Assembly: GCA_016839745.1 (NCBI GenBank)
Contig: JAEOTS010000080.1
Span: forward strand, 1-64,000
Source of the DNA: Promethearchaeota archaeon
Lineage (GTDB): Archaea > Asgardarchaeota > Lokiarchaeia > Sigyniarchaeales > SOKP01
Direction: 5' to 3'
Length of the DNA: 64,000 nucleotides
Under the pieces are notes generated by a model. It did no database searches. It saw only the letters and a list, made by a program, of their open reading frames with translations, and was not told the DNA's origin. Below are positions 6,840-53,984 of the stretch, piece after piece. The stretch's first letter is position 1. Each line of letters starts with the position of its first letter. The translations under genes and the position numbers were made by a program.

Positions 6840-7099
6840 TATTTTAACTTTTAAGTAATATTTATTATTGTCATGAATAAAAAGTTTAGTTATGGACTCT
6901 ATTGTCTAATTTCTATGAGTTAAGATTATACTTAGTACAGGCTTACCTTAAGCATTTTTTATTTTTGATTTATGAAAAGATAGGATAAGATTTAAAAGAT
7001 TATTTATCGTATTTTTTCTCTGTCTTACTAATTTTTAAGTATCGACAAAATTATAAAAAAAAAGTAATAAAAAAAAAATCCAAAAAAGTGAAAATATAC

Positions 7100-8563
7100 A
7101 TGACAAAATACAACAAAAAAGCACTTATTGTGCTTGCAAGTCTCGTATTTTTAATGACATCAACATTTTTTCTCTTTCCAATAAAGGTACAAGCAAAACC
7201 AGTTAGTTCTCAAGTACCCATGTTGACTATTTATGTTACTGATCAACAAATGGCTGGTGTCGAATTTGTCAAAGCCGATTTTCTTGCGTCACCTCTCGGT
7301 AGTGGCGTAACAGATGTAACTGTTACATCTACAGGAACTACTGCCAATGACCAGTTAGCTTTTCTACAGACCTTAATGGGGGGTGGAACTGCTACAGCGG
7401 CAGTAATTGGTTTAGATGTAGTTTGGACTGCATTATTTGCTAGTAATGGTTGGATTATTAATCTTGACTCATATTTAGATCCCAATGAAATGGACGATTA
7501 TGTAGCGGGATTAGTTGACGCTGGAACCTGGAACGGTCACTTATACGCGTATCCGTATTTTAATAACTTAGGTATCTTGTTCTATAGAACTGATTTATTA
7601 AATCTACATATGCCAGGTTGGACAGAAGCCGATTTTGATACGTGGGAGGAGTTAAATGCAACAGCTAATTATATTCTTAACAACCAAAGTGGCTTATTGA
7701 CTGCAGCTGATGCTGATTTAGTAGGATACATTGGACAACTCGACGCTTATGAAGGTGGTGTAGTCAACTTCTTTGAGATTATTGGAAGCAACGGTGTTCT
7801 TGACGCAGTCACTAGTGCTGGTGATGTAAATGTAAATACTCAAGATGTAAAAGACGCAATGACCTTCTTTAAAGCGTTAGTACCTCCTCAATATACTGGG
7901 GTTCAAGGTAATCAATACATTATCCCACGCTATGGCCTTGTTCATGACGAAGGATCATCAGTGGGTAAATGGTTAGCAAATGAATCGATATTTATGAGAC
8001 AATGGCCGTTTGCATACGGATTATCGGAAGACAATAACATGGACTTTGGTCTAGCACCATTACCTCATTTTGCTGGTGCAACAGGTTACAGAACTTCAGC
8101 GGTAGGAGGCGCAATTTTAGCAGTTCCAGCTGCAACAACAGGTACTGCAAGAGAAGCTGCCGTTAATCTTACTAAATTCCTTGGAGATCAATTAGCTCAA
8201 GAAGCAGAACTTACAGAAGTTTCAAATTTCCCTGCTCTTACATCAGTTTATGCTAGCCCCCCTACGGGACAGGAATGGATTATGAATTTCACGGATCAGT
8301 TACCCTTAACTTTATCACGACCTGTACATGAAGATTATCCTCTCATTTCAAATGTGATAGCTGATTACTTCAGTGATTTATTAAGTTGTCAAAAGAGTGT
8401 TGACGATGCATTATTGGAAATGGATCGCGATATAAAAGAAATAATTGGAGAAGCACCTGTTCTTCCTGGACTTGAAATTCCAGGATATAGCATTGCGATA
8501 CTAGTTATGACGACTGCCTTTTCTATTGGATTAATTGTAGTATTAAGAAGAAGACATAGGTAA
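7100..8563 (+). CDS. Sugar (trehalose/maltose-type) ABC transporter substrate-binding protein with C-terminal IPGY membrane anchor
   Basis: N-terminal signal, LDVVWTALFA, LFYRTDLL, YEG, FMRQWPFAY; C-terminal EIPGY + TM + RRRHR. ATG at 7100 preferred over GTG at 7088. Confidence 0.85.
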   Translation: MTKYNKKALIVLASLVFLMTSTFFLFPIKVQAKPVSSQVPMLTIYVTDQQMAGVEFVKADFLASPLGSGVTDVTVTSTGTTANDQLAFLQTLMGGGTATAAVIGLDVVWTALFASNGWIINLDSYLDPNEMDDYVAGLVDAGTWNGHLYAYPYFNNLGILFYRTDLLNLHMPGWTEADFDTWEELNATANYILNNQSGLLTAADADLVGYIGQLDAYEGGVVNFFEIIGSNGVLDAVTSAGDVNVNTQDVKDAMTFFKALVPPQYTGVQGNQYIIPRYGLVHDEGSSVGKWLANESIFMRQWPFAYGLSEDNNMDFGLAPLPHFAGATGYRTSAVGGAILAVPAATTGTAREAAVNLTKFLGDQLAQEAELTEVSNFPALTSVYASPPTGQEWIMNFTDQLPLTLSRPVHEDYPLISNVIADYFSDLLSCQKSVDDALLEMDRDIKEIIGEAPVLPGLEIPGYSIAILVMTTAFSIGLIVVLRRRHR

Positions 8564-8643
8564 GAGAATAATTTAATACATCTAAATTTTAATTTTTTTT
8601 TTTAATTATAAAATATATTTTAAAAAAAAGGAGATTTTTAAAC

Positions 8644-10836
8644 ATGGAAACTGTTTCAGTTGAAAAATATGAATTAGTGAAAGAATTCGAAAAACCTCCT
8701 AAAGATACAAGATTTGTTGTATCATTATTAATCCCAGGAATAATAATTTTTGCTTTAGCCATATTGTTTCCTATTATTACAGGGATTTTCATCAGTTTTA
8801 CTGATGCTAGCCCATCTACGGGATTATTTGGAAAATATCTAACATTAGATAATTATTTTAAACTTTTAATACAAGGAGAATTCCATACACGCTACTTTTG
8901 GCAATACACATATCAAACATTGTTTTTTTCGATTTTTTCCCTTTCAATAGAGTTTTTCTTAGGTTTAATATTTGCTCTAATTCTAAACAAAAAATTTAAA
9001 GGTAGAGGCATCGCGAGAGCTACAATTTTAATACCGTGGGCAATTCCTACTGTAGCATCTGCTACAATATATAGGTTTGAAATTTTTAATACTGCTGATG
9101 AAAACGGATTAATTAATAGCCTTATTGTTTTCTTTGGAGGTCGTCCAATTGATTTCTTTGGACCTGATGCAGAAATATTTAGTCTTGGGAATATATTAAT
9201 AATAATAATTATCGTTTTAATAATCGTCCTGGTAATAATTGGAGCTCTCGCTATAGTAAGAAGAAGTATAAAGGCATCTATTAAGAAAATACTTATTATC
9301 GTATCGATAATTCTACTGTTAGCTTTATTGTCTTTTGTATCTTTTGCGACACGGGGAGATCCAACATCTTTAGTAGATCTGGAAGTTACAATGACGATGT
9401 TCACATCAATTTTCATTGATGTTTGGAAAACGACGCCTTTTATCACATTATTAATTTTAGCATCTTTACAAATTGTACCGAAGGATTTATATAAAGCAGG
9501 CGATATAGCTGGAGCATCTGGTTGGCAAAAATTTAGGTATATAACATGGCCTTTAATTAAACCAGGAGTAGGAATTGCGTTAATTTTTCGAATGATGCAA
9601 GCTCTTAGAGTGTATGACGCTATAGTAGTGTTTAATGATGACAGCGTTAATTCCATGACTTCCCATTCAGTTCTTTTGTGGTTAAGCGGTGATTATGGAA
9701 AGGCTTCAGCAGTTTCAGTTTTATTATTAGGTTTTATAGCAGTATTTGCATTAGGTATAACGATATTGACAAGGAAAAAGAAGAGAAGCAAATCATCAAA
9801 GAATACTTCTTTTTTACCCAACGTAGAAGCTAATGATGTGTTAAAATCAGAAGTTAATCCTTTGACTGGTGAGTTGAAAAAGGAAAATATAATTAATGAC
9901 GCCAATTTTGAGACGAAAATTGAACCAATATCCGAGTCCACAGTTAAATGGTATATACGGAAGAGACATATTAAAAAAGGATTTTTTATCTTTTTAGCAG
10001 TGTTTATGTGTCTCTTCTGCGCGGGTCCTTTTATTTGGATAGTATTAAGATCTTTTAGAGACCCTTACATTGTACAAACAGAGTTTGAATTATTTCCAAA
10101 ATACCTTTCATTTGGAGCGTACGAAGTAATATTTCAAAGTGCCGAAGTGACTGGTGTCGCATTTGAGAGAGCGCTTTTAAATGGATTAATATTGTCAGGA
10201 ACAACAGTTGTAACAGTAATTATTGTTGGTTCATTTATTGCTTACGCTATAGCAAAATTTGACTTTAAATTTAAAAAAGGTCTAAATAGTTTTATATTCT
10301 CAATGAACAGCTTACCACCTCTTATTATAATAATACCTTTCTATATTCAGATTATTAGTATAGCGACTATATTCCCATTCTTTGACTTACGGGATAATTT
10401 ATTAGGATTGGTTTTACCTTATGCTGCAATCAACCTGCCATTGGCTATATTCATTCTAGTCGCGTTTTTTAGGGAAATTCCTGAAGATTTGTGGAAAGCT
10501 GCAAAAGTTGATGGTGCTTCGAACTTTCAAATTTTTAGAAAAATTATCTTTCCATTAACTATACCTGGTATTTTTACAAGTGCGATCTTAGTATTTATTG
10601 CTTCTTGGAATGAATTGCTATTCGCTCAAATATTTTTAACAGATCCTTTAAATCACACGGTACCACGTGCTATTTTAAGATATACAAGGAACCTTCAGAG
10701 TTTAACAGCAACATGGGATACTGACATCGCTTTATTAGCAGCAACAACTATAGCAACAATACCGTTGGTAATAGTCGTTTTAATATTTCAGAAGAAAATT
10801 GTAAGTGGTTTAACGAGAGGTGCCGTGAAAGGTTAA
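8644..10836 (+). CDS. Fused MalF-MalG sugar ABC permease
   Basis: Two EAA-loop permease domains (DLYKAGDIAGASGWQKF; DLWKAAKVDGASNFQIF) joined in one ORF by a hydrophilic linker. Confidence 0.9.
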   Translation: METVSVEKYELVKEFEKPPKDTRFVVSLLIPGIIIFALAILFPIITGIFISFTDASPSTGLFGKYLTLDNYFKLLIQGEFHTRYFWQYTYQTLFFSIFSLSIEFFLGLIFALILNKKFKGRGIARATILIPWAIPTVASATIYRFEIFNTADENGLINSLIVFFGGRPIDFFGPDAEIFSLGNILIIIIIVLIIVLVIIGALAIVRRSIKASIKKILIIVSIILLLALLSFVSFATRGDPTSLVDLEVTMTMFTSIFIDVWKTTPFITLLILASLQIVPKDLYKAGDIAGASGWQKFRYITWPLIKPGVGIALIFRMMQALRVYDAIVVFNDDSVNSMTSHSVLLWLSGDYGKASAVSVLLLGFIAVFALGITILTRKKKRSKSSKNTSFLPNVEANDVLKSEVNPLTGELKKENIINDANFETKIEPISESTVKWYIRKRHIKKGFFIFLAVFMCLFCAGPFIWIVLRSFRDPYIVQTEFELFPKYLSFGAYEVIFQSAEVTGVAFERALLNGLILSGTTVVTVIIVGSFIAYAIAKFDFKFKKGLNSFIFSMNSLPPLIIIIPFYIQIISIATIFPFFDLRDNLLGLVLPYAAINLPLAIFILVAFFREIPEDLWKAAKVDGASNFQIFRKIIFPLTIPGIFTSAILVFIASWNELLFAQIFLTDPLNHTVPRAILRYTRNLQSLTATWDTDIALLAATTIATIPLVIVVLIFQKKIVSGLTRGAVKG

Positions 10837-39749: not shown

Positions 39750-41624
39750 ATGAAACTTACAAATCTTACAATTAGAGATTTAATTACACCAGATTCGAAG
39801 TTAACATTCCTTGCTGGAGCGGGTTGTTCCATTGATCCTCCCTCTTGTCAGCCAGCAGGACGTGCTATGATGGATGCGATAATCGATTATACATGTGCTG
39901 AATCAGAAATTGAAGGAATTAAAAAGCTAGAAAAACTTCGATTTGAGGCACTTGTGGAGATAGTCCGAGAACAATTAGATAAGGAGTTAAAAATCATTGA
40001 TTATTATGGACTATGTGATAAACCGAATACTCAGCATTTATTTCTGGCTGACATGATCAATAAAGGGAGTTTTGTAATAACTACTAATTTTGACTTTTTA
40101 ATAGAATACGCATTAAAACAATTGGGAGTTCCAGATGATGATATTATTCCTGTTATAACGCGGGAAGATTTTGAAGAATTTCAAGATCCATATGAACAAC
40201 TAAAAAAAGGAAAGAAAACTGTGTATAAAATTCATGGTTCCACTAAAAACATTATTACAGAGAAATCTACGCGAGACTCGTTAATTGCAACAATTAAAGC
40301 ATTCGGTTCGAATAAAGAAGGAGAGAATGTTTTTCAACTTGAATCCTTTAAACAACCAGCATTCGCAAACATCACGGAGAATCGCTCTTTAGTGATAGTG
40401 GGCTATTCTGGCAGCGATGATTTTGATATTGTTCCAACTTTGCAAGTCTTGAAAAATCTCAACAATATTATTTGGATTAATTATGTTCACGATGATGAGG
40501 GGAAAGAGTTAATTTATGAAATTACTTCTTCTGAGCCAGAAGAATTTGACAAAGTTGATCAAATTTTAGTGGAAATTAAGCGAATGAATAATAAAGTTCC
40601 TGTATACAAAGTTAATGCGAATACACATAGAATAGTAAACGAGATTTTAGATTTCAAACCTAAATTAAGCTCAGAAAAATTCTCTGTTAATGCACTGGAT
40701 TGGTTAAAAGAAATAATTATAATACCAAGTGAAATGATGAAGTATTTTATATCTTATAAAATATATTGGAGTTTTGATATTTATAATAAAGCAATGACAT
40801 GTTCAGAAAACATTTTGAGAATTGCTAAAGAATTAGGAGATTTGAGGGGAAAAGCTATTGCTCTTAACAACATCGGGACAATTCATTATGCACAAGGTAA
40901 CTATCCAGAAGCATTGAAGCGGTACGAAGAGGTACTACAAATCGATGAGCAATTAGGAGATTTGAGCGGGAAAGGTAAAGATATTAATAACATTGGAGGG
41001 ATTTATGAAGCACAAGGTAATTATCCAGAAGCATTGAAGCAGTACGAAGAGGCACTACAAATCGACGAACAATTAGGAGATTTGAGCGGAAAAGCTATTG
41101 CTCTTAACAACATCGGAATGATTCATTATGCACAAGGGAACTATCCAGAAGCATTGAAACGGTACGAAGAGGCACTACAAATCGACGAACAATTAGGAGA
41201 TTTGAGCGGAAAAGCTATTCATCTTAACAACATCGGGGGGATTCATTATGCACAAGGAAACTATCCAGAGGCATTGAAACGGCAGGAAGAGGCACTACAA
41301 ATCGACGAGCAATTAGGAAATTTGGCACATAAAGCTGAATGTCTTAACAACATCGGGACATTTCATCATGTACAAGGGAACTATCCAAAGGCATTGAGGC
41401 GATATGAAGAGGCACTACAAATCGACGAGCAACTAGGAAATTTGAGGGGAAAAGCTATTCGTCTTAACAACATTGGAGAGATTTATGATGCACAAGGGAG
41501 CTATCCAGAGGCATTGAGGCGGTACGAGGAGGCATTACAAACTCTCATTGTAAAAGGATTAAGCGAATCACAAAATGCTAAGATTATTAAAGAAAATATT
41601 GAAAATTTAAAGAGTAAAAATTAG
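39750..41624 (+). CDS. SIR2-family (SIR2_2) domain protein with C-terminal TPR repeats
   Basis: FLAGAGCS, ITTNFD, YKIHGS, IVGYSGSDDFDI; six 40-aa TPR repeats. Confidence 0.9.
   Translation: MKLTNLTIRDLITPDSKLTFLAGAGCSIDPPSCQPAGRAMMDAIIDYTCAESEIEGIKKLEKLRFEALVEIVREQLDKELKIIDYYGLCDKPNTQHLFLADMINKGSFVITTNFDFLIEYALKQLGVPDDDIIPVITREDFEEFQDPYEQLKKGKKTVYKIHGSTKNIITEKSTRDSLIATIKAFGSNKEGENVFQLESFKQPAFANITENRSLVIVGYSGSDDFDIVPTLQVLKNLNNIIWINYVHDDEGKELIYEITSSEPEEFDKVDQILVEIKRMNNKVPVYKVNANTHRIVNEILDFKPKLSSEKFSVNALDWLKEIIIIPSEMMKYFISYKIYWSFDIYNKAMTCSENILRIAKELGDLRGKAIALNNIGTIHYAQGNYPEALKRYEEVLQIDEQLGDLSGKGKDINNIGGIYEAQGNYPEALKQYEEALQIDEQLGDLSGKAIALNNIGMIHYAQGNYPEALKRYEEALQIDEQLGDLSGKAIHLNNIGGIHYAQGNYPEALKRQEEALQIDEQLGNLAHKAECLNNIGTFHHVQGNYPKALRRYEEALQIDEQLGNLRGKAIRLNNIGEIYDAQGSYPEALRRYEEALQTLIVKGLSESQNAKIIKENIENLKSKN
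40831..41545 (+). repeat. Six 120-bp near-identical tandem repeats encoding TPRs
   Basis: Unit register aaag(ct/gt) at 40851, 40971, 41091, 41211, 41331, 41451. Confidence 0.95.
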
Positions 41625-42235: not shown

Positions 42236-43138
42236 GTGCTAGATGAAATTGAAGTGTCTGATACGAGCAATTCTGGTGCGGATGTTTCAAAGGAAAAGAT
42301 TAATCTCCAATTTCATTGGTACTTAAGCATTTTCTTTATTATTTACTATTTGTCTTATGTGATCTCTGGAATCATTTTTATGACCTACATAATAAATGTT
42401 TTTATTCCGTATGTCTTATTAATAGACAATCTCATTGTCATTTTTACCAACATTTATTCGTTTCTGGCTTTAATTGCTTTACCATTAGTCATTATTGTTA
42501 GTTATTTATCCCGCTTATTAATTATAGGTTTAATAACTCGTTTTTTCTGGAGATTAACTGAGAAAAGGAGTCCAACTCGGGATGGCATAATCCCGCGAAA
42601 TATTCCTTCCAAAACCGCAAATTATTACCACATTCGATCTTTTATGATAAAATACGGAAAAAACGCTTTCATGAAAGGTGTTTTTCCGTGGTTATCTAAT
42701 TGGTACTTTAATTTTGTGGGAACCGGCATCATTAAAAAAGGCTCTACGTTAGAAGAATCAGTTGTCACAGATAAACACATGAATGTTGGAAGGAATTGCT
42801 ATGTCGGCGTTAATTCAGCACTATCATCTCATTTTGTAGAAGGAACATTTGGCAATATTGTCTATTTTGAAATCAAATTGGGAGAAAATACCACTCTTGG
42901 AGGATTTAACAACATTGCACCTGGATGTGAATTAAGCGATAACTCGTATTTGTTACCAATATCCGCAGCGACAAAACATAATAAGACTAAAGGGAATAAC
43001 TATTACTTTGGGATGCCCATACATAGAATATTCAAGAAAAAACTCATGAACTACTTAAAAGTGAGCGAACATGATTTAGAACGAGCTGAAGAATTAAGGA
43101 TCAGGCAAGAAAAAGAAAAATTAGAAAGAAATAAATGA
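42236..43138 (+). CDS. Membrane-anchored LbH acyltransferase-like protein, type A1 (Pls/PosA terminal-domain-like)
   Basis: 2 TM, DGIIPRN...YYHIR, hexapeptide repeats VGRNCYVGVNS, SSHFVEG, closing YFGMP. Confidence 0.75.
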   Translation: MLDEIEVSDTSNSGADVSKEKINLQFHWYLSIFFIIYYLSYVISGIIFMTYIINVFIPYVLLIDNLIVIFTNIYSFLALIALPLVIIVSYLSRLLIIGLITRFFWRLTEKRSPTRDGIIPRNIPSKTANYYHIRSFMIKYGKNAFMKGVFPWLSNWYFNFVGTGIIKKGSTLEESVVTDKHMNVGRNCYVGVNSALSSHFVEGTFGNIVYFEIKLGENTTLGGFNNIAPGCELSDNSYLLPISAATKHNKTKGNNYYFGMPIHRIFKKKLMNYLKVSEHDLERAEELRIRQEKEKLERNK

Positions 43139-43185
43139 GCGAATTGATAAAATTTTTAATAGACTTAAGAGGAAATTAATAGATT

Positions 43186-44106
43186 TTGATCGAAGATACA
43201 AGTGATTCTGGACCTGAACTCCAACGGGAAATTGTTCAATTTCAGTATCAGAAATATATGGCTTTCTTTTTTTTCATCTACATAGGTTCTTATTTAGCGC
43301 CAGTCATCGCTCTAATGTTTTACCTTTTCTTAGTTTTAAAACCTTTCTTTTTAGAAGTAGAAAATTTCATTGTTGTCCTAACTAGTTTTGATTCATTAAT
43401 TGTTTTTTTAACCCTTCCCCTTGTTGTAGTTGTCTTCTATTTATCCCACTTATATTTCTTAGGACTTTTTACGCGAATTTTATGGAGGTATACCGAAAAG
43501 AAAAGTTCTACACGGGATGGCATAATTCCTCGCAATATTAGGTCAAAGACAGTAGATTATTACCACTACCGAAGCTTTATGATTAAATACGGAAAGAATG
43601 CTTTCGTGAAAGGAATTTTCCCATGGCTGGCTAATTGGTTTTTTAATTTTGTAGGAGCAAGCGTTATTAATAAAGGCACAACTTTTGAGGAATCTGTTAG
43701 TAACGACCGAAATATTGAAGTGGGAAAAAATTGTTATATTGGAGTGAATTCGGCGTTAGCTTCTCACGTTGTTGAAGGTATTTTTGGTAACATCATCTAT
43801 TTTCAGGTAAAAGCAAGAGATAATGTTACGCTCGGAGGGTTTAATGTAGTGGGACCTGGAAGCGAGCTAAAAGAAAACTCTTATTTATTACCTATGGCTG
43901 CTGCGACTAAATTTAATACGACTAAAGGAGACAGCTATTATTATGGTATGCCATTACATCGCATATTTAAGAAAAAGCTCATGGGTTACTTAAAACTCAG
44001 TGAAGACGATTTAAACAGGGCAGAAGAACTAAGAATTAGGCAAGAAAACGCGAAACTCAACAGTTCAAAGAAAAAAGAAACAAACAATAAAGAAAAACAA
44101 AAATAA
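43186..44106 (+). CDS. Membrane-anchored LbH acyltransferase-like protein, type A2
   Basis: Tandem paralog of 42236..43138; VGKNCYIGVNS, ASHVVEG, YYGMP. Confidence 0.75.
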   Translation: MIEDTSDSGPELQREIVQFQYQKYMAFFFFIYIGSYLAPVIALMFYLFLVLKPFFLEVENFIVVLTSFDSLIVFLTLPLVVVVFYLSHLYFLGLFTRILWRYTEKKSSTRDGIIPRNIRSKTVDYYHYRSFMIKYGKNAFVKGIFPWLANWFFNFVGASVINKGTTFEESVSNDRNIEVGKNCYIGVNSALASHVVEGIFGNIIYFQVKARDNVTLGGFNVVGPGSELKENSYLLPMAAATKFNTTKGDSYYYGMPLHRIFKKKLMGYLKLSEDDLNRAEELRIRQENAKLNSSKKKETNNKEKQK

Positions 44107-44124
44107 AGACACGTGTTAAATAAA

Positions 44125-45039
44125 ATGACTGAAGAAGAAAATGATGAGCAAGAAGTTGTTAAGGAGGATAATGAAATAGATGATGATACAGAATTCATTA
44201 TAGACTTTACAACAAGCTCGGCAATAAATAGAGTTGGTTTGAAATTCTTAGTTGTGTATATCCCAATATTCTGGTTTAGCGGTCTTGCGGTTGCAACATT
44301 TTGGTATGGTTATACAATAAGTCCAGTACCTTGGATAATTAAATTGTTATTTTTACCTCTAATATTATTAGGTTTCAGTTTTCTATTTATCTTTAGTTGT
44401 TTCTTTTTTAGCAAACTTCTATTAATTTTCATAAACTTAATTCACTTTCCCAAAGAGGGAATATTCCGGGCTGAAAAGGGAAACATGGATTTTGAGTTTT
44501 GGATCCTCAGAACCGAGATAAAGAAGATAACGCTATGGTTAATACGAAATTGGCCTTTGCCGTGGATTGATGTTATCGCTTTTCGCTGGTTTGGTATAAA
44601 AATGGACTTTTCAAGCCATTTAAACGACGCGTGGTGTGATGCTGAATTCATTTCCTTTGGAAAACACGTTACCATTGGTCAAGGCGCTGTTATCATGAGT
44701 TCAATGGTAGTAGGCAATTACCTCATCATTAAAAAGATTAGATTTGACGATTATTCGCTCATCGGAGGTCAGAGTACTATCGCCCCTGGAACGCATTTTG
44801 GTGAAGATACAGTGCTGGGCGCGGTGTCTACGACAACATTAAATCAGGAATTAGAAGACGGATGGATTTATTCTGGAATCCCAGCAAGGAAATTAAAACT
44901 TAACAAATACGCTGAAATGCGGAGGGACATTATCCACAAAGTTGACGTTGACGAAGCAGAAAAAGTCGAAACCGAGCACGAAGTTAATATAGACGATGAT
45001 AAAAGACACCTTTTTAAAAAGAAGAGGGAGGATGATTGA
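44125..45039 (+). CDS. Membrane-anchored LbH protein, type B
   Basis: DFTTSSAI, 2 TM, PKEGIF...FEFW, FGKHVTIGQGAVI, IGGQSTIAPGT, YSGIPA; ATG 44125 (track GTG 44113). Confidence 0.75.
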   Translation: MTEEENDEQEVVKEDNEIDDDTEFIIDFTTSSAINRVGLKFLVVYIPIFWFSGLAVATFWYGYTISPVPWIIKLLFLPLILLGFSFLFIFSCFFFSKLLLIFINLIHFPKEGIFRAEKGNMDFEFWILRTEIKKITLWLIRNWPLPWIDVIAFRWFGIKMDFSSHLNDAWCDAEFISFGKHVTIGQGAVIMSSMVVGNYLIIKKIRFDDYSLIGGQSTIAPGTHFGEDTVLGAVSTTTLNQELEDGWIYSGIPARKLKLNKYAEMRRDIIHKVDVDEAEKVETEHEVNIDDDKRHLFKKKREDD

Positions 45040-45040
45040 A

Positions 45041-45937
45041 ATGAGCGTTCCTAATTCTATGCGTATTGGTCCTTTTTGTGCGACGGTCTTAGCTAAAAAA
45101 AAATACTTGATATTATATATATTTTTGATTTGGATAAGTCTATTTCCCGCTATTTTGGAAATATGGTGGTATTGGCAGATGTTATGGTACGAGCCTCGAC
45201 CACTCCACTTTTACGTGTTTTTGCCACTCTATTTGTTCGTTATCTATGTTACAACTGTTATTGCCGCCATCTTTTTCACGAAAATTGTGTTAATGATCAT
45301 TAACATTTTCCATAAACCTAAAGAAGGAGTGTTTCTTCGAGATCCTTCTGATAAGGATTACCGTTATTGGAGCCTTAGAAACACGATTAAGAAATGGCCC
45401 ACTTGGCTCGCACATAAATTTCCATTTCCCTTCTTAGATAATATATGTTTTAAAATGTTTGGGGTTAAAACAAAATTTTCTAACTCACTTTTTGAAGGTT
45501 GGGTAGATACGGAATTCATGGAATTCGGTAAAAATGTTGTTGTTGGACAGGGTGCTATAATTCAATCTTCGGTTATCATAGGAAACCTTTTGATTATTAG
45601 AAAAACAACTATTGAAGAAAATGTAAGGATTGGAGCACACGTAATAATTATGCCAGGAACTCATATAGGAAAAAATTGTATTTTGAATACTTGGTCGTCT
45701 ACCATGGTCGGACAAGAATTGGAAGAAGGTTGGATATATAATGGAGGTCCGGCAAAAAAATTTAAGAAAAATAGGTTTTTCGAGGACATCCCAATTGAAA
45801 AACTTACTAAAAGCATTGGAGATTTGGATGGATTATTAAGGAAATACGACGAACAACGGGTCGCTAGAGTAACTAAAGAGCGGAAATTCCTTAAAATAAA
45901 AGATAAAGAGGAACATACCACTGAAGAAAAGGAGTAA
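45041..45937 (+). CDS. Membrane-anchored LbH protein, type C
   Basis: MSVPNSMRIGP start matches paralog 53025; PKEGVF...DYRYW; FGKNVVVGQGAII; IGAHVIIMPGTHIG; YNGGPA. Confidence 0.75.
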   Translation: MSVPNSMRIGPFCATVLAKKKYLILYIFLIWISLFPAILEIWWYWQMLWYEPRPLHFYVFLPLYLFVIYVTTVIAAIFFTKIVLMIINIFHKPKEGVFLRDPSDKDYRYWSLRNTIKKWPTWLAHKFPFPFLDNICFKMFGVKTKFSNSLFEGWVDTEFMEFGKNVVVGQGAIIQSSVIIGNLLIIRKTTIEENVRIGAHVIIMPGTHIGKNCILNTWSSTMVGQELEEGWIYNGGPAKKFKKNRFFEDIPIEKLTKSIGDLDGLLRKYDEQRVARVTKERKFLKIKDKEEHTTEEKE

Positions 45938-45938
45938 C

Positions 45939-46727
45939 ATGAAAATCGGTTACGTACAAACTTCTCCAATTTTTGGAGAAATAACTCAAAACTTTGACCA
46001 AATTGAGAGTTTAGTGGGTAATTCTAAAGCAGACTTTATTGTTTTGCCCGAACTCTTCGCAACGGGATACACTTTCATATCTAAAGAAGAAGCGGCATCT
46101 ATGGCTGAAAATACTGAAGGAAAAACTTCCGAATTCTTAATGAGAATAGCTAAAAGAACGGGTGCTGTGGTTGTAGGTGGATTCATAGAAAAAGATGGTA
46201 ATCACATATTCAATTCGTCTATGATCGTATCTGATAGCGAAGTTCTTGGTACATATAGGAAACTCCACCTTTATTACAAAGAAAATAAGTGGTTTTCTCC
46301 GGGAAATAAACCTTTAGAAATATATAAAGTTAAAGATACAAGGGTGGGAATCATGATTTGTTTCGATTGGTTCTTTCCTGAGACTATCCGAAGTTTAACT
46401 CTTCTTGGAGCAGAAATTATCGCTCATCCCGCTAATTTAGTTCTTCCGTATTGCCAGAAAGCAATGATAACTCGATGTTTGATCAATCGCGTTTTCGCTA
46501 TAACTTCTAATAGAATTGGTAATGAAGCGAGAGGAGAGGATAATTTTACATTTACAGGGGGAAGCCAAATTACCTCTTTTAATGGTGAGGTACTATCAAC
46601 TGCGCCAAAGGATAAACCTTATATTGATTTTGTTGAAATAGAGATTACTCAAGCGAGAGATAAAAACCTTAACAAATATAATAATGTAATTAGTGATAGA
46701 AGAATTGAGTTTTATTCACTTGAGTAA
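45939..46727 (+). CDS. Nitrilase-superfamily carbon-nitrogen hydrolase (amidase)
   Basis: E-K-C triad: VLPELF, YRKLHL, MICFDW; SNRIG; starts 1 nt after the type C stop. Confidence 0.9.
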   Translation: MKIGYVQTSPIFGEITQNFDQIESLVGNSKADFIVLPELFATGYTFISKEEAASMAENTEGKTSEFLMRIAKRTGAVVVGGFIEKDGNHIFNSSMIVSDSEVLGTYRKLHLYYKENKWFSPGNKPLEIYKVKDTRVGIMICFDWFFPETIRSLTLLGAEIIAHPANLVLPYCQKAMITRCLINRVFAITSNRIGNEARGEDNFTFTGGSQITSFNGEVLSTAPKDKPYIDFVEIEITQARDKNLNKYNNVISDRRIEFYSLE

Positions 46728-46751
46728 ATTTACTATCAAATTTTAAAAAAA

Positions 46752-48392
46752 TTAAACTTCTACAACATAAAGCGGCCATTTTTTTAAAATGCCTTTCGGA
46801 CTCTTCCCGTTTTTAACTTTCTCTAATATTTCAGAGCGAGTCGATAAGAAGTCTACGGGATTATTCTTAATAAATTCTAGTTCAATCTCATTATTTAAAA
46901 TAGCTTCTTTAAATTTTTTATTTTTAATACATTCCAATAAGATTTGACTATAATTTGCTAAATTAGAGCAATTACTCTTCTCGTTTGAATATAGAAATAA
47001 TCTTAAACCATTATTTACAGATTTTTTAGAGATTATTAGTAATAGAGAATCAATATTTGGAATGCATTTCTCTTTTAAGCAATTTAAAAGAAATCTAGGA
47101 TTTTGAATTTCGAAATTAGGAAAAGTAAAGTAATCCCCAGCATAGACTCGATAATTAGATTGTACTTCTATCTTATTTGACAATTTTATAGGATAATTTA
47201 ATTGAAAACTTGAACGGAAAATTCTCCCGTCAATTTGGGGAAGTCCGTCTTGATATTTAATTGAAATAACATCACTTAAATCTATATTGATTAATGCTTC
47301 TGAGTTGTCAAGACGTGAAACATAAAGCCTACCAAATTTATTTTTGGTTCTTGAAATCAACTCTTTTTTTCCTCTGTAATCTATTACTGGAAGTGAAAGA
47401 GGAAAGATATGCATTCTATCTAAAGTAGAGATATCAAAACCAGCTCCACTTAAACTTGAAGCAAATGGTCCAATCTCAGAAGCTACATAAAGATTAGTGA
47501 ATTTTTCTTTCCCTTTTTCCCATTTCATAAATTTTCGAATTAAATTCCAGTCAGATTTTGAAAGTGAACTAATGCTAAATATTAAAGTTGCATTAGCTAG
47601 CTTTTCAGATAGATCATTTTGAATTTGTTTTGAAGCATTAAATAATCCATTCTTTTCAATTTTTAATAGAAGGTCTTCAACTTTTGGATTTTGAGTTTTA
47701 TCTATTGAATCAAGTGATCTTTTAATCCCATCCTGGAGTCTAACAATATCTGCCCAACCTAAGATTGTTATTGCTGGAGCAGAAATAACTGAGATATTAT
47801 CCATTGTTAAAATTTCAGATAAAATCTCTAAATTCCTTGAATTTTTATATTCATATAAAAGATACGATTTTGGTTTAATAACAGATAACATAATTCTTTG
47901 AGAAAATTCTGAAGAGTAAAGCGAAATATATTTCTTGTCTTTATATGTTCTAGTTCCATCAAATTTTAATCTAGAAGGAACAAAAACAATAGCGGAAGAA
48001 TTTGAATTTAAACCACTCGATTCAAAAATTGCTTGCATACCAGGAGCCCACTGCCTTTTAGCAATATCTTTTGTCATGTGAAACCATTTTATCATCGACA
48101 AATTACTATTTGTAGTCCCTGAAGTATGACAAAAAACTAATGGTTTCGAAATTTTATTAGTTTTTAGATAATCATCGATCTTTATCGAGAAACTTCTTGA
48201 ATCAGTCAATCCAGATTTTATCTTATTGAAAATATCCTCAACAGATGACAATCCCGAAAGTTTTAATGATAATTCTTCATATTCTTCTCTAGTCCTTATT
48301 TCAAGCCAAGATTTCCAATTTATTTTTTTTATATCAGAAAAGGACTCATTGAATTTTTTCTGAATCTTCTCATCAAAATCTAATGACTCCAA
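46752..48392 (-). CDS. GH3-like/ANL-superfamily adenylate-forming enzyme (divergent)
   Basis: P-loop-like HTSGTT; NLYVASEIG (YxxSE); NIDLSDVI (degenerate YRxGD); DGR. Confidence 0.6.
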   Translation of the reverse strand: MESLDFDEKIQKKFNESFSDIKKINWKSWLEIRTREEYEELSLKLSGLSSVEDIFNKIKSGLTDSRSFSIKIDDYLKTNKISKPLVFCHTSGTTNSNLSMIKWFHMTKDIAKRQWAPGMQAIFESSGLNSNSSAIVFVPSRLKFDGTRTYKDKKYISLYSSEFSQRIMLSVIKPKSYLLYEYKNSRNLEILSEILTMDNISVISAPAITILGWADIVRLQDGIKRSLDSIDKTQNPKVEDLLLKIEKNGLFNASKQIQNDLSEKLANATLIFSISSLSKSDWNLIRKFMKWEKGKEKFTNLYVASEIGPFASSLSGAGFDISTLDRMHIFPLSLPVIDYRGKKELISRTKNKFGRLYVSRLDNSEALINIDLSDVISIKYQDGLPQIDGRIFRSSFQLNYPIKLSNKIEVQSNYRVYAGDYFTFPNFEIQNPRFLLNCLKEKCIPNIDSLLLIISKKSVNNGLRLFLYSNEKSNCSNLANYSQILLECIKNKKFKEAILNNEIELEFIKNNPVDFLSTRSEILEKVKNGKSPKGILKKWPLYVVEV

Positions 48393-48415
48393 AATGCTCT
48401 CCGAGAATAAAATTT

Positions 48416-49405
48416 TTATTTAGTATATAATTCAATCAATTCTTGTCGTCGTTTCCTATAAAATACAATTGGAATATCTCCTTGAATGAGTTTTTCTTCC
48501 ATTTGTAATTCAGTTTTTATCGGTTGCTGGGTTATAACAACCCTTCGATCTTGGTGTAAAATCTTAATACTTGACTTTTTTCCAATCCAATTAACTAAAG
48601 TTTTCAAAAGTGGAATTCTTACTAATTTCTGATAAAATCTCATATAAAATAAAGTATTGTTTTCATCAACTGGAACAAACGCAATAAAAATGCGTGCTTT
48701 TGTTGCAAGATTGAGTTGCCATAAATGGGGGAATCTAAAGGTAAGATGAAACACTTTAAAATCTTCTGGAAATTCTTGAGGCGTAAAAGGTTTAGTTTTC
48801 CCATCATCTTTTACATTATATGTCCACGCAAGAAACCCTCGCTTATCCTCCATTTCTTCAACGAGAGGGCCATGTACTAGAGTCCGGTGCCCTCTTCCAA
48901 TTGTATTATAATGTACAAAAGGAAGATGTACTACATCTAATTGGTTTTCAATTGCTCTAGAGTAGTGAACTGGCCAAACTTCTGTATAGGTGGAATAACT
49001 AAATTTTTTATCAATATCTTCAAAGAAGGGAAGGGGAGGATATTCGCTCAAAGTATCTCCCCACCATATCCAGATAAAACCATGATCTTCTTCTGTGGGG
49101 TAAGAATGAACTTTAAAACGTTCAGGAACGGGTGAACTTTTTCCATTAGCGGGGATAATTGTAGTTCTACCTGAGGAGTCGTATTGAAGTCCATGAAATG
49201 GGCATTCTACAGTTTCACCATCTTGGCATATTTTACCTATACTCAGTGCTGCACCTCGATGTACACATTTATCTTTCAAGCATATAATTTCATTTTTCTT
49301 GTTACGCCAAAATACCATTTTTTCGCTTAAACGAGTTATTCCAATGAGTTTACCACGAGGAACTTCTTTTGATTCTAATACAGCATACCATTGATTTGGA
49401 ATCAT
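48416..49405 (-). CDS. Rieske non-heme iron oxygenase, alpha subunit (VanA/KshA-like)
   Basis: NQWY; CVH...CPFHG Rieske ligands; ENQLDVVHLPFVH iron site; C-terminal QD. Confidence 0.9.
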   Translation of the reverse strand: MIPNQWYAVLESKEVPRGKLIGITRLSEKMVFWRNKKNEIICLKDKCVHRGAALSIGKICQDGETVECPFHGLQYDSSGRTTIIPANGKSSPVPERFKVHSYPTEEDHGFIWIWWGDTLSEYPPLPFFEDIDKKFSYSTYTEVWPVHYSRAIENQLDVVHLPFVHYNTIGRGHRTLVHGPLVEEMEDKRGFLAWTYNVKDDGKTKPFTPQEFPEDFKVFHLTFRFPHLWQLNLATKARIFIAFVPVDENNTLFYMRFYQKLVRIPLLKTLVNWIGKKSSIKILHQDRRVVITQQPIKTELQMEEKLIQGDIPIVFYRKRRQELIELYTK

Positions 49406-49611
49406 AATTAAATTAACACTATAATCTCTTATTTTTATTTATTCTTCCTATAAACTAAAAACAATACGATTCAGTTTGAATGAAATTTCATTTCACTTCA
49501 AAGTAATACGAAAAGACAAACATAATAAGCTTATTTAAAATATAATTGTATTGAAGAAGAACGATCCGAACTTTAAGTGATTGATAAAATAAGTTAATAA
49601 ATGCATAGAAG

Positions 49612-50619
49612 ATGAGAGCTGCCGTATTTGATGGACAACAAATATCAGTTAAGGATGTACCAATACCAAAACTTGGAAATTCTCAAGTTTTAATTCAAAT
49701 TAAAGCGTCAGGAATATGTGGGACCGATATAGCCATAGTAAAAGGAGATTTGCCAACGCCATCTCCGCTTATTTTAGGACACGAGTTTGCAGGTGAAGTT
49801 ATAGAAGTCGGTAAGAAAGTTGACTCAAACTGGGAAGGAAAACATGTCACATCCGAAATTAATACCAACATCGATTTCAGCTGTTATTACTGTCAACGAA
49901 AAATTTTTTCCCAATGTCTATCACGCAAAGCCTTAGGTATAGATATTAACGGCTCCTTTGCTGAATACATAGTTCTTGAGCCATATTTGCTTCACGAAAT
50001 ACCGAGAAAGATTTCTTACAAGGAAGCAACGTTTATAGAACCTTTAGCAGCAGCGTATCAAACATTTGAAATGATGCCATTAGCTGATGACGACAAAGTT
50101 ATCGCAATCTATGGGCTTGGAAAATTAGGTTTATTGCTAACCCAAGTCGCCTTAGTTAAGGGATTGGATGTAATAGCAGTTGATGGTTCAGAAAAAAAGC
50201 TTTCTATGGCTGAACAGTATGGTGCAAAGCAATTAATTAACCGTCATGAGGTAGAAAATATAAGTGATGAGATCAAAAGTTCAACTGATAATCTTGGAGC
50301 AGATATTGTCGTAGATACTACAGGCAATCCAGAAGCTCTTATAGATATCGTTGCTTCGTGTAAAACACGAGGTAAAATCCACATTAAAAGTACTCATGGA
50401 TTAAGAACTCCAATCAATCTTACTGATATAGTAGTTCGAGAAATCACAATTTACAGCAGTAGGTGTGGTCCATTTGATAAAGCAATTGAGGGATTAAGCT
50501 CTGGAGATATTAAAGTTAAAAATTTAGTTTCCAAAATGTATGACTTAGAAAAAATTAGAGAAGCATTTGCTGCTTACGATGAAAATCCGGATTTTATAAA
50601 AGCAGTTATCATAATTTAG
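49612..50619 (+). CDS. Zinc-dependent alcohol dehydrogenase (MDR family)
   Basis: GICGTD, LGHEFAG, EPLAAA, GLGKLG, SRCGPF. Confidence 0.9.
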   Translation: MRAAVFDGQQISVKDVPIPKLGNSQVLIQIKASGICGTDIAIVKGDLPTPSPLILGHEFAGEVIEVGKKVDSNWEGKHVTSEINTNIDFSCYYCQRKIFSQCLSRKALGIDINGSFAEYIVLEPYLLHEIPRKISYKEATFIEPLAAAYQTFEMMPLADDDKVIAIYGLGKLGLLLTQVALVKGLDVIAVDGSEKKLSMAEQYGAKQLINRHEVENISDEIKSSTDNLGADIVVDTTGNPEALIDIVASCKTRGKIHIKSTHGLRTPINLTDIVVREITIYSSRCGPFDKAIEGLSSGDIKVKNLVSKMYDLEKIREAFAAYDENPDFIKAVIII

Positions 50620-51004
50620 TAAACAGTACCTGTTTTTCTAAAAATCTAACGATCTTTTTACATGTATTCATGTGAGATTGTTTATTTGGATAAAACATTT
50701 CAGGTCTCGGGCATTCTTGGTCTAAAACGCATATTTCTTTATCAGAATCGTATATTAAAGGATAAAAACGACATCCTTGTGGTCTCACTCTATAAACTTG
50801 ACATAATTTAGATGTAACATCAAAGAAAACGCAAAATCCATCTGCATTTTTTAATTGGAGCAATCCATCTGTTGTTTTTATTACAAAATCGTTTGTTCGC
50901 AAGTTCTTAGGATCAGAATTTTTAATTCGGTTAACATCCCGAGCAGAAAGAATCATTTCTGTTTCACGACAACAATTACCACAATCTACACATTTGTTTT
51001 TCAT
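50609..51004 (-). CDS. YkgJ family CxxCxxCC cysteine-cluster protein
   Basis: CVDCGNCC, CVFF, CQVYRVRPQGCRFYP. Confidence 0.85.
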   Translation of the reverse strand: MKNKCVDCGNCCRETEMILSARDVNRIKNSDPKNLRTNDFVIKTTDGLLQLKNADGFCVFFDVTSKLCQVYRVRPQGCRFYPLIYDSDKEICVLDQECPRPEMFYPNKQSHMNTCKKIVRFLEKQVLFTKL

Positions 51005-51130
51005 AGTTAGCTTATCTTTTCTACTATTTATTAATACTTAATAAGGAAAAAACAAATTTTTTTAAACTATAAAAGTAATCTTTTATCTTAATTATACTTT
51101 AATCGAGTATTTTTTTTGATTTGATAAATC

Positions 51131-53038
51131 ATGGCTGTTGAGGGTAAAGCAGAGGTGTCTACTGATTCTAAAGCCTCTGAAGATTCAGAAGAAGAACCCA
51201 TTATAGAAGAAGTGAGAATGCAATATACTCTCTATTTGATACTCTTTTTTATTATTTACTATATATCGTGGATCGGTCCCAGCTTTATTTTTATGACGTA
51301 TTTCATGATGGTTTTTCGAGAATATTTTTTAGAGGCTCCCACTTTTATCGCTATTTTTACGGAACTAAATCCGCTTTTAGCTTTACTTTTAATGCCTTTG
51401 ATTATAATTCTATGTTATTTAGTGCGCATTATTTTCATAGGGCTTACCACTAAGATTATTTGGGCAATAACTGAAAAAATATCGCCATCGAAAAATGGAA
51501 TAATACCCAGAAACATTAAATCTAAAGCAGCAGATTATTACCACATAAGATCCTTTATTTTAAAATACGGCAAAAATATATTTACAAAAGGAATCCTTCC
51601 TTGGCTTTCAAACTGGTTTTATAATTTTGTGAAAGCCAGCAAAATTGGAAAAGGTACGACAATAGAAGAATCTTTAGTAAATGATAAATTTATAACTGTC
51701 GGAAAAAACTGCTATATTGGAGTTAATTCAAGCCTCGCGACACATGTTGTTGAGGGAATTTTTGGCAATATCTCGTATTTTGAAGTTAAACTGAAAGATA
51801 ATGTTACTTTTGCAGCGATGAATCAGATCGGTCCTGGATCTGAAGTTTTCGAGGATAGTTTTTTATTACCCTTAGCATCAGCTCAAAAGCATGTGACAAT
51901 AGGGAAACAGGGAGGTAAAAATTTTGGGTATTACTTTGGACTTCCCGCTAGGAAAATTTTTAAAAAGAAATTAAAGGAATATATTGGCTTAAATCCTGAA
52001 GATTTAGAAAGAAATGAGAACTTAGAAGAGTACCTTTCTAAGAAAAACGAGACAAAGTCAAAAATTAAACAAAAGAGTATTGAAAAAATCGAAGCGGAAG
52101 ATCCTAACGAAACTAGTAACAATGATACTAAGGACCAAGTAAAGGAAAATCCTATTGATATCAATAGTTTAACTAAAGAAGATTTAGCCGTCGACTTTAC
52201 AACTAGCAGTGCTATTAGCAGAATAAATATAAAGTTTTTAGCTGTTTACATACCAATTTTTTGGTTAAGTGGATTAATGGCAGCAATATTTTGGTATGAA
52301 TATACCCGATTTTTTGGACTCTCAACAATATTATTTCTACCAATCGCTCTCTTTTTAATGATTTACATATTTATTATAGGAGTGCTGTTTTTTAGCAAGC
52401 TGCTGCTAATTTTTATCAATTTATTGCATAAACCCCGTGAGGGAGTTTTTTTAGCTGAAATTGGTGATAAAGACTACGAATTTTGGATGATGAGGACAGA
52501 ATTAAAAAAAATTGCCCTTTGGTTTCTTAGAAACGCTCCACTACCTTGGATAGATGTAATTGCGTTTAGGTGGTTTGGTATACGGATGGATTTCTCAAGT
52601 CATTTAAACGATGCGTGGTGTGATGCCGAGTTTGTAGATTTTGGTCGAAATGTATTAATAGGGCAAGGAGCTACAGTGATGTCCTCAATGATAATTGGTA
52701 AATATTTGATAATTAAAAGAGTAATATTTGAAGATTACGTTCTAGTAGGTGGACAAACAACCATCGCCCCCGGTACGATAATGAGACACGATGGTTTTAT
52801 TGGTGCTATAAGTACTACGACATACAATCAAGTTCTTGAGCCTAATTGGATATATTTCGGAATTCCAGCCATTAAGCTTAAAAAAAATAAATATGCCGCG
52901 ATAAGACGAGATATCATAACAAAACGCAGCGTTGATGATGAGACGAAAATCGAGGAGACTACAGATGTTTACGTCGATGATGATAAAAAACAATTAATAA
53001 ACACAGAAGAATCGGAGGATAATCATGTCAATTCCTAG
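51131..53038 (+). CDS. Fusion of type A and type B membrane-anchored LbH domains
   Basis: N-half homologous to 42236/43186 (GIIPRNI, ATHVVEG); C-half homologous to 44125 (DFTTSSAI, HLNDAWCDAEF); charged linker between. Confidence 0.8.
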   Translation: MAVEGKAEVSTDSKASEDSEEEPIIEEVRMQYTLYLILFFIIYYISWIGPSFIFMTYFMMVFREYFLEAPTFIAIFTELNPLLALLLMPLIIILCYLVRIIFIGLTTKIIWAITEKISPSKNGIIPRNIKSKAADYYHIRSFILKYGKNIFTKGILPWLSNWFYNFVKASKIGKGTTIEESLVNDKFITVGKNCYIGVNSSLATHVVEGIFGNISYFEVKLKDNVTFAAMNQIGPGSEVFEDSFLLPLASAQKHVTIGKQGGKNFGYYFGLPARKIFKKKLKEYIGLNPEDLERNENLEEYLSKKNETKSKIKQKSIEKIEAEDPNETSNNDTKDQVKENPIDINSLTKEDLAVDFTTSSAISRINIKFLAVYIPIFWLSGLMAAIFWYEYTRFFGLSTILFLPIALFLMIYIFIIGVLFFSKLLLIFINLLHKPREGVFLAEIGDKDYEFWMMRTELKKIALWFLRNAPLPWIDVIAFRWFGIRMDFSSHLNDAWCDAEFVDFGRNVLIGQGATVMSSMIIGKYLIIKRVIFEDYVLVGGQTTIAPGTIMRHDGFIGAISTTTYNQVLEPNWIYFGIPAIKLKKNKYAAIRRDIITKRSVDDETKIEETTDVYVDDDKKQLINTEESEDNHVNS

Positions 53039-53984
53039 TAGCATGCGTATTGGACCTCTAATACCAACTATTCTGATAAAAAAGAGCTACTTAATATTTT
53101 ACTTTATCATCGTGTGGTTCAGTTTTATTCCACTTTTCTTGGAATTATGGGTCTATTGGAAATTTTTGTGGAATTATACCCGACCGATTCATTTCTACAC
53201 TTTCCTACCTTTATTAATTATTCCCATGTACGTAACTCTTGTTTTTAGCGCAACTTTTATAGCTAAAATATTTCATTTAATAGTTAATGCAATCCACAAG
53301 CCTAGAACCGGCGTATTTCTAAGGCATCCAAGCGACAAAGATTACCGTTATTGGTGTATAAGGAATGTTATAAAAAGATGGCCGTTTTGGCTCAGTCATA
53401 GATTTCCCTTCCCTTTTTTGAATAATATCTGTTTTAAAGTATTTGGGGTCAAAACAAAATTTTCAAATTCTCTTTTTGAAGGCTGGGTAGATACAGAGTT
53501 CATAGAGTTCGGTAAAAATGTCGTCGTTGGTCAAGGAACTATAGTACAATCTTCCATGATAATCGGAAACCTTCTTATTATAAAGAAAACAATAATTGAA
53601 GACGATGTGAGGATTGGATCTCACGCAATTGTTATGCCGGGCACACACATCAAAAATAGAAGCGTATTAGCAAGTAATTCAGTCACTACAGTTGACCAAA
53701 AACTCGATGAGGGCTATATATACGTCGGAGTTCCGGCAAAGGAATTGAAGAGAAATTATTTCTTTGAAGATGGACTACAAGATAAACTCGGTCAAGTTGA
53801 AGACGTGGAAGCATTAAGAGAAAAATACGAAACAATGTATCTTAAGCGTGTCGACGAGAAACCCAAATACAAAGAACGAAAAGAACTGAAAAGAAAGACG
53901 AAAGCGCAAGAACAATATTGGTATGGGCTTGAAACTGAAGAAGGAGACGAGGACGATGTATATGACGACACGTTTACCATTTAA
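53025..53984 (+). CDS. Membrane-anchored LbH protein, type C (second copy)
   Basis: Paralog of 45041..45937 (SMRIGP, DKDYRYW, KTKFSNSLFEGWVDTEF); overlaps the upstream fusion by 14 bp. Confidence 0.8.
   Translation: MSIPSSMRIGPLIPTILIKKSYLIFYFIIVWFSFIPLFLELWVYWKFLWNYTRPIHFYTFLPLLIIPMYVTLVFSATFIAKIFHLIVNAIHKPRTGVFLRHPSDKDYRYWCIRNVIKRWPFWLSHRFPFPFLNNICFKVFGVKTKFSNSLFEGWVDTEFIEFGKNVVVGQGTIVQSSMIIGNLLIIKKTIIEDDVRIGSHAIVMPGTHIKNRSVLASNSVTTVDQKLDEGYIYVGVPAKELKRNYFFEDGLQDKLGQVEDVEALREKYETMYLKRVDEKPKYKERKELKRKTKAQEQYWYGLETEEGDEDDVYDDTFTI

Follow-up and report, generated by a model that had tools for sequence, protein, structure and literature searches.

Two clusters of genes for membrane-anchored left-handed beta-helix (LbH) proteins lie close together in a 64,000-nucleotide stretch of DNA from Promethearchaeota archaeon (assembly GCA_016839745.1, contig JAEOTS010000080.1, positions 1 to 64,000; hereafter the window). 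They raise the question of whether their products act as independent acyltransferases or as the parts of one machine and, in the latter case, whether that machine is the polymerising end of the synthetase for epsilon-poly-L-lysine (Pls) split into subunits, as an earlier note on this DNA had proposed. Pls comprises an adenylation (A) domain, a thiolation (T) domain, six transmembrane (TM) helices and three domains, C1-C3, that are "related to acetyltransferases" (PMC8506220). For Pls and for the delta-poly-L-ornithine synthetase PosA, neither a solved structure nor an established mechanism is available for the polymerising end (PMC10522769). The locus (42236 to 53984) encodes a real, conserved three-subunit membrane LbH enzyme of Pls-type design. 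On balance, each cluster probably encodes a membrane-anchored ring enzyme, built from one subunit each of three types (A, B and C, letters used below for sequence types), that has a single active site and carries out acyl transfer.

Seven copies of one membrane unit fall into three sequence types

Six open reading frames, all on the + strand, were found to encode seven copies of a single unit, arranged A1-A2-B-C in the first cluster and A::B-C in the second. Each unit begins with two hydrophobic helices, which are followed by a P-x-E/x-G turn after the second helix (TM2), a basic and aromatic linker, a series of hexapeptide repeats and a Y-x-G-x-P end. The first cluster consists of A1 (42236..43138), A2 (43186..44106; 60% identical to A1), B1 (44113..45039) and C1 (44996..45937; likely start at the ATG at 45041). 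The second consists of a natural fusion of 635 amino acids (aa), A3::B2 (51131..53038), in which the A part spans residues ~1-330 and the B part residues ~331-635, and of C2 (53025..53984), the start of which lies behind GAGGA. From their sequence, the gene junctions of both clusters look translationally coupled: the likely start of C1 is one base past the B1 stop and behind GGAGG, the start of C2 overlaps the end of A3::B2 by 14 bases, and a C-N hydrolase gene begins one base past the C1 stop.

Pairwise comparison of the window units confirmed, at the level of sequence, that there are three types. Identity was 52-60% among the A units and 61% both between the two B units and between the two C units; it was ~40% between B and C, and 22-26% between A and either of the others. 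The E-values between units, which ranged from 1e-9 to 1e-120 (BLAST, HMMER), showed that the similarity was far above chance. The cut-off of the Pfam hexapeptide model (Hexapep, PF00132) was passed by C1, C2 and A3::B2, with A1, A2 and B1 falling below it. Membership of the beta-helix class was supported by LbH strands in all three units of an AlphaFold2 (AF2) model of a triple fusion, described below, and by Foldseek matches to LbH acetyltransferases.

The order of the types is fixed and fusions join different types

Close homologues of the window proteins came from Lokiarchaeota/Promethearchaeota and were named only "DapH/DapD/GlmU-related protein" or "hypothetical". When 201 genomes of the phylum were searched, strong matches to C1 were obtained in 40/40 genomes of the window's family, in which there were about ten units per genome, and in 3/3 genomes sampled from a sister family belonging to the same order; in four further families the matches were single and weak. 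More distant Asgard families contained scattered single-unit genes in which the putative catalytic His described below was kept.

A total of 42 relative loci were retrieved, and 148 units were typed by BLAST and by tree. The units resolved cleanly into one clade for each type, the B clade being sister to the C clade, a result which indicates that whole sets were duplicated together. In the window's family all three types co-occurred within the clusters, and none of the 34 clusters departed from the cyclic order A>B>C. The arrangement A-B-C was found in seven clusters and in two more within combined A-B-C-A::B-C arrays, A-A-B-C in three and A-A-A-B-C in one; A::B-C made up six clusters, in addition to arrays with two or three A::B genes ahead of one C, and C::A-B made up nine. 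Type A was therefore present in up to three copies, and A::B genes in variable number, compared with one B and one C.

Natural fusions joined different types only, never two units of the same type, and did so in cyclic order (A::B, C::A and C::A::B). The C::A::B triple fusions, which occur in relatives, were 797 and 805 aa in length.

Other units and locus types were also recorded. The C::A-B locus type was present in most genomes of the family, including members of the same genus (example coordinates 8420-10814), and was not found in the source genome (3.5 Mb, 192 contigs, 89% complete). Three further units were present in that genome outside the window: a divergent pair on one contig (C20) and a lone A-like unit on another (C27). 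The C20 pair (289 and 247 aa; locus coordinates 7984-9597, - strand) was basal to the B+C clade, with the His kept in the first unit and lost in the second, and was directly followed by a gene for a 531-aa double metallophosphoesterase; it may represent a two-type version of the enzyme. The C27 unit (locus coordinates 7043-7843, + strand) carries the His, adjoins a major facilitator superfamily (MFS) transporter gene and resembles the single-unit genes of other Asgard families.

Probable assembly and topology of the complex

The 797-aa C::A::B fusion (P0129) was modelled with AF2 from an alignment of 29 natural fusions, in which the placement of the rows by MAFFT was verified. A mixed alignment had its type-C rows misplaced on the B unit; the fusions-only set was placed correctly and was used. 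The model had a predicted local distance difference test (pLDDT) score of 80.9 and a predicted template modelling (pTM) score of 0.83, and each of its units took the form TM-TM-strand-helix-helix-LbH. A pTM of this size in a three-unit chain indicates that the units are confidently placed relative to each other, and in the model the triple fusion is one compact body. The published model of PosA has three left-handed helices with approximately three-fold symmetry on six bent membrane helices (PMC10522769).

The fusions and the compact model support an obligate three-part complex of A, B and C. We infer the ring itself from these comparative data, which we regard as strong, and the subunits would be present in it in a ratio of 1:1:1. 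With regard to topology, the loop between the two helices of the hairpin contained 0-2 Lys or Arg residues, compared with 4-7 in the 30 residues past TM2; this positive-inside charge bias predicts that the N-terminus and the beta-helix are cytoplasmic.

These results bear out much of what the earlier note had claimed for the window. All six open reading frames, with seven copies of one architecture in the order A1-A2-B-C and A::B-C, were recovered; the three types and their fixed order held in every family cluster examined when synteny was compared across Asgard genomes; the fusions A::B, C::A and C::A::B, as Rosetta-stone evidence, together with the AF2 model, supported the obligate complex; and the source names of the close homologues agreed with a probable Asgard archaeon.

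One unit in three keeps the putative catalytic histidine

In a profile search of the PDB the first match was E. coli galactoside acetyltransferase (GAT 1kqa, E 7e-18), and the conserved His of the family aligned exactly on His115 of that enzyme; searches of the PDB with single sequences gave generic LbH matches only. The H115A substitution in galactoside acetyltransferase leads to the loss of ~90% of conversion (PMC12775004). The equivalent residue was kept by A1 (SSHFVEG), A2 (ASHVVEG) and the A part of A3::B2, in the type-A motif S-S/A-H-x-V-E-G, and by the single-unit relatives. At the same position, Ser was found in type B (M-S-S-M; MSSMVVG in B1) and in type C (Q-S-S-x; QSSVIIG in C1); across all 78 typed units, B and C lacked the His. 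In the type consensus the helix of A held one conserved His, and those of B and C none.

A matching pattern was observed in Pls and PosA, in which the His was present in 68/69 third units (Q-T-H-L-F-E), compared with 8/69 first and 1/69 second units, and His-x-x-Glu was common to type A and Pls unit 3. The presence of one unit with the His and two degenerate units points to a single active site per ring. Furthermore, the genes for A and A::B vary in number while B and C are each present once, which is in keeping with catalytic subunits that can be exchanged, of which A1 would be the putative first alternative and A2 another, with B1 as a putative non-catalytic partner.

The nearest solved folds to the soluble part of the unit were the maltose and galactoside O-acetyltransferases (Foldseek E 3e-6, TM-score 0.55-0.63, ~185 columns); in the galactoside enzyme, the family His falls on catalytic His115. 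These enzymes (LacA/Maa) are soluble homotrimers with three identical active sites and no membrane hairpin, whereas two of the three types described here have lost the His.

The units are homologous to those of Pls and PosA

For types B and C and for most fusions, the top NCBIfam match was to the Pls/PosA model TIGR02353, with scores of 35-67 bits where the cut-off is 423.1. The window proteins scored 14-45 bits, with no match for A2, and the natural fusions 54-67 bits, so that the cut-off was not reached in any case. Since weak matches to TIGR02353 were also obtained in all 14 control genomes, this match was judged to be non-specific. Of the two profile searches that the earlier note had put forward, therefore, that with the hexapeptide model was positive for C1, C2 and A3::B2, and that with TIGR02353 remained below its cut-off and was not specific when taken alone. 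The claim of kinship with Pls consequently rests on a reverse profile search and its control.

In the reverse search, a profile of 33 Asgard units was compared with proteins of 740-2110 aa from a database of 5.8 billion sequences. The 98 matches obtained (best match E 3e-57, 211 bits) were nearly all A-T-LbH synthetases, many of them named Pls or PosA, besides two triple fusions. All of the complete matches (69/69) contained three tandem unit matches of 50-85 bits each, which extended over profile positions ~16-240 of 269, a span that in Pls/PosA covers the hairpin, the linker and the helix. By comparison, ordinary LbH proteins of the source genome, used as the control, scored no more than 32 bits and matched over positions ~136-241, that is, over the helix only. 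The contrast between whole-unit tandem matches and helix-only matches indicates that the kinship is real and specific; as judged from these profiles, the Asgard units are homologous to the units of Pls/PosA, and the similarity to the terminal module that had been claimed for the window is upheld.

The two systems have in common a repeating unit of TM hairpin, one strand, two helices and LbH, and in both there are three different units per enzyme, one of which carries the His115-equivalent residue. They differ in that the window units are separate genes or a two-unit fusion, not one three-unit chain, and in that the six window proteins have no adenylation (AMP-binding) or thiolation (PP-binding) domain. 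In addition, the His unit is the last in Pls, whereas in the Asgard cyclic order B and C come after it. The product of the Pls/PosA family is an isopeptide-linked homopoly(amino acid).

The phylogenetic analysis separated the two lineages. FastTree placed the Pls units on one side of a branch and the Asgard units, single units included, on the other (support 0.99), and the same split was recovered with IQ-TREE (LG+C20+F+G4) with a Shimodaira-Hasegawa-like approximate likelihood ratio test (SH-aLRT) support of 95. Forcing type A and Pls unit 3 into one clade cost 35.5 log-likelihood units and was rejected by the approximately unbiased (AU) test (p-AU 0.029), a test of modest power given the remote sequences and 235 columns. 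The proposal that the locus is the Pls terminal module split into subunits was set aside on the basis of the separate clades and of this rejection.

The tree split, the rejection of a clade of A with Pls unit 3 and the single-unit relatives in other Asgard families together favour, and do not prove, independent triplication in the Asgard and Pls lineages, with the fusions being secondary. Both lineages would then have separately reached one His-x-x-Glu unit and two degenerate units. In the simplest history, an Asgard membrane LbH enzyme with one unit, which was presumably a homotrimer, may have been the starting point; the lineage would then have passed through a stage with two types to one with three in one Lokiarchaeia order, and continued with whole-set duplications and fusions, with Pls being triplicated separately.

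Outside the archaea, several Pls-type terminal modules that have no adenylation domain were observed among the reverse-search matches (P0214, P0218, P0219, P0224, P0208, P0225). They included proteins with LbH only (819 and 1029 aa), proteins with a carrier and LbH (864 and 913 aa, one from Streptomyces), a fungal epimerase/dehydratase and LbH protein, and another with a polyketide synthase-like front end. In the literature searched, the A-T-C synthetases described were all full-length, a few of them archaeal, and no paper on split or carrier-free forms was found, which is consistent with the statement of the earlier note that no such system had been described.

Proposed enzyme, donor and acceptor

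In the enzyme that we propose, one A, one B and one C unit would assemble in the membrane; in the second cluster, A and B share a chain. Each unit would place its two-helix hairpin in the membrane, giving six helices per complex, and its linker helices and beta-helix on the cytoplasmic side. The three beta-helices would pack side by side as they do in trimeric hexapeptide acyltransferases. The active site would be located at the interface of A with a neighbour, the His of A acting as general base, and B and C would provide a scaffold and a co-substrate surface. The extra A genes and the A::B fusions would supply exchangeable catalytic subunits that share B and C.

No PP-binding (carrier) domain and no phosphopantetheinyl transferase (PPTase) were found in the source genome, which is 89% complete. 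This result makes a carrier-bound donor of the Pls kind unlikely and leaves acyl-coenzyme A (acyl-CoA) as the default. Taken with the usual chemistry suggested by the LbH family, the most likely donor is an acyl-CoA thioester, which in some genomes might be provided by a neighbouring PaaK/GH3-like enzyme.

The acceptor is most likely to be membrane-embedded or membrane-proximal; examples would be isoprenoid lipids, glycans linked to a lipid and polymers that are being exported. A lipid or lipid-linked acceptor is loosely suggested by one profile match and by two kinds of neighbouring gene. The match was to heptaprenylglyceryl phosphate O-acetyltransferase (NF058585, YvoF type), which was the top NCBIfam match of A1 and A2 and the second match of A3::B2 (E 8e-10, on the A part). 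That enzyme acts on an archaeal-type prenyl-glycerol lipid, in keeping with a membrane-anchored enzyme in an archaeon, but the scores were weak (14-38 bits against a cut-off of 300) and the NF058585 enzyme is soluble and homo-oligomeric.

With regard to the neighbours, a gene for a DUF1295 membrane protein (steroid 5-alpha-reductase/ICMT-like) was situated directly beside an A-B-C set in four loci (L010, 4459-5286; L019, 16714-17547; L020, 18699-19520; L021, 8291-9148), and a UbiA prenyltransferase gene was found beside single units in one distant genome. No shared pathway emerged from the neighbours of the single-unit relatives in other Asgard families, which included UbiA and MFS genes once, an alpha/beta hydrolase gene once and otherwise housekeeping genes.

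Neighbouring genes

In the window's family, a conserved super-locus was recognised that consists of A..B-C, the C-N hydrolase, a Zn-dehydrogenase, a CxxCxxCC protein (opposite strand), A::B-C and an AlaX-like protein (opposite strand). The C-N hydrolase (nitrilase superfamily; 45939..46727, + strand) has an intact E38-K108-C141 triad, is closest to archaeal nitrilases, at a score below the cut-off, and follows an unfused A-B-C cluster in 7 loci; it might serve as an amidase that acts on the product, or might provide the acceptor. The Zn-dependent alcohol/threonine-type dehydrogenase gene (49612..50619, + strand) lies between LbH clusters in 12 loci, and the gene for the small metal-binding CxxCxxCC protein (PF03692; 50609..51004, - strand) lies just upstream of an A::B fusion in 13 loci.

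Between the two clusters of the window there is also a gene for an orphan 546-aa protein (46752..48392, - strand), for which no Pfam, NCBIfam or PDB sequence match was obtained. Its family gave 85 matches among 1.84 billion representatives and has so far been seen in one Lokiarchaeia order only. An AF2 model from 32 sequences (pLDDT 92.1, pTM 0.91) matched PaaK1, the acyl-CoA ligase BT_0428 and GH3 amido synthetases in Foldseek over ~530 columns (E 4e-12 to 1e-8), and the family consensus contains the ANL-like motifs CHTSGT, YVxSEIG, NIDTGDVI and PKGxLKKW. Judged by its modelled fold and these motifs, the protein is a highly diverged ANL adenylating enzyme of the PaaK/GH3 type. It shares the two-domain ANL fold with the PaaK phenylacetate-CoA ligases and GH3 enzymes and differs from them in having no detectable family match at the sequence level and in belonging to a tiny family.

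The ANL gene was found in 26/41 genomes of the window's family, in 0/14 of the sister family and in 4/4 of another family. Approximately 15 copies were within ~7 kb of LbH clusters and ~9 were on other contigs. The ANL enzyme may therefore feed activated acid to the system in some genomes, as a partial and not an obligate companion.

Two further features of the region were noted. A gene for a Rieske/VanA-type oxygenase (48416-49405, - strand) shares the strand of the ANL gene and is directly downstream of it; in other loci, the ANL gene has a DUF6512 protein gene as its neighbour instead. Dependence on O2 would not be expected of an enzyme from such an archaeon. A 624-aa protein (39750-41624, + strand), encoded just upstream of the first cluster, joins a SIR2_2 domain to many TPR repeats and, at its C-terminus, a MIT domain, and looks like a defence-type NAD-consuming sensor.

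Weighing the ring against other readings

Several observations weigh against the ring of three types. Two A::B genes had no C of their own directly behind them, though both adjoin another set; in the sister family f2, type A is accompanied by one B/C-like unit, and the C20 pair consists of two diverged units only. These two-unit forms indicate that a ring of three types is not the sole workable form. The side-by-side packing is drawn indirectly, from the pTM of the triple fusion and from the published PosA model, and it is conceivable that A::B fusions assemble as (A::B)3, in which the A3 and B3 trimers would be separate. Furthermore, B and C may use catalytic residues other than the His. Finally, the C-N hydrolase, Zn-dehydrogenase, CxxCxxCC and ANL genes are conserved as neighbours in part of one family only, and they do not spell out a known pathway.

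An alternative that we consider improbable is that the ring is a carrier-free polymerase of the Pls type, which would make a polyamide from activated amino acids, or from amino-acyl units of another kind, and thread it through the six-helix bundle. The ANL enzyme would then replace the adenylation domain, and the C-N hydrolase would serve as an amidase for trimming or self-protection. The homology to Pls/PosA over hairpin, linker and LbH is in agreement with this proposal, as are the shared pattern of one His in three units with His-x-x-Glu, the adenylating enzyme that lies between the clusters and close to LbH clusters in ~15 genomes, and a C-N hydrolase with an intact triad in the same operon. 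However, the genome yielded no thiolation domain, free carrier protein or PPTase, which argues against polymerisation in the style of Pls, and the resemblance of the ANL enzyme is to aryl/acyl-CoA ligases and to GH3 amide synthetases rather than to the adenylation domains of nonribosomal peptide synthetases. The enzyme was, moreover, not found in 15/41 genomes of the family, all of which have LbH sets, and was located elsewhere in ~9. The Asgard units probably do not derive from Pls, and their His-bearing single-unit relatives resemble ordinary acyltransferases.

Quite improbable as well is the reading in which the product of each gene assembles only with itself, as a membrane-anchored acetyltransferase that is a homotrimer, and the arrays are paralogue expansions directed at different substrates. 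LbH acyltransferases are usually homotrimers, and solitary single-unit genes are indeed found on contig C27 and in other Asgard families. Against this, B and C lack the catalytic His throughout the typed units, the three types are found together and in fixed order in each family cluster, fusions never join a type to itself, and the triple fusion is modelled as one compact body.

A non-acyltransferase ring, either gamma-carbonic-anhydrase-like or purely structural, as in plant and protist complex I, has a precedent in the gamma-carbonic-anhydrase domain (CA/CAL) of mitochondrial complex I, a membrane-attached LbH heterotrimer of active-like and degenerate paralogues, and such subunits were among the PDB sequence matches, but it is highly improbable given that the three Zn-binding His residues used there to hydrate CO2 are not conserved here (one helix His in A, none in B or C), that the best solved matches by fold and by profile were O-acetyltransferases, and that the neighbourhood contains no respiratory-complex genes.

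Significance

The ring enzyme proposed here would offer an easier object for structural work and enzymology than Pls, in that it has separate small subunits, one evident catalytic subunit and no carrier domain. The comparison with Pls further suggests that the design of three units with one His arose twice. The analysis also contributes a fold assignment for the ANL neighbour and a record of where it occurs, an AU test of a clade of A with Pls unit 3, which was rejected, and the cluster census with its widespread C::A-B type.

A bolder version, which we consider improbable, casts the ring as a counterpart of the Pls polymerisation machine that works without a carrier and can exchange its catalytic subunits. 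Its substrates would be acids activated by CoA or as adenylates, for which the orphan PaaK/GH3-like enzyme would be the source in some genomes, and it would either produce a secreted polyamide or polyester or acylate isoprenoid membrane lipids. If this were true, the Lokiarchaeia would have a membrane chemistry of their own, of a kind that is so far not known in archaea. The Lokiarchaeia are among the archaea closest to eukaryotes, and since the system, whatever its chemistry, is universal and multi-copy in one of their families, it is a sizeable part of the membrane biochemistry there.

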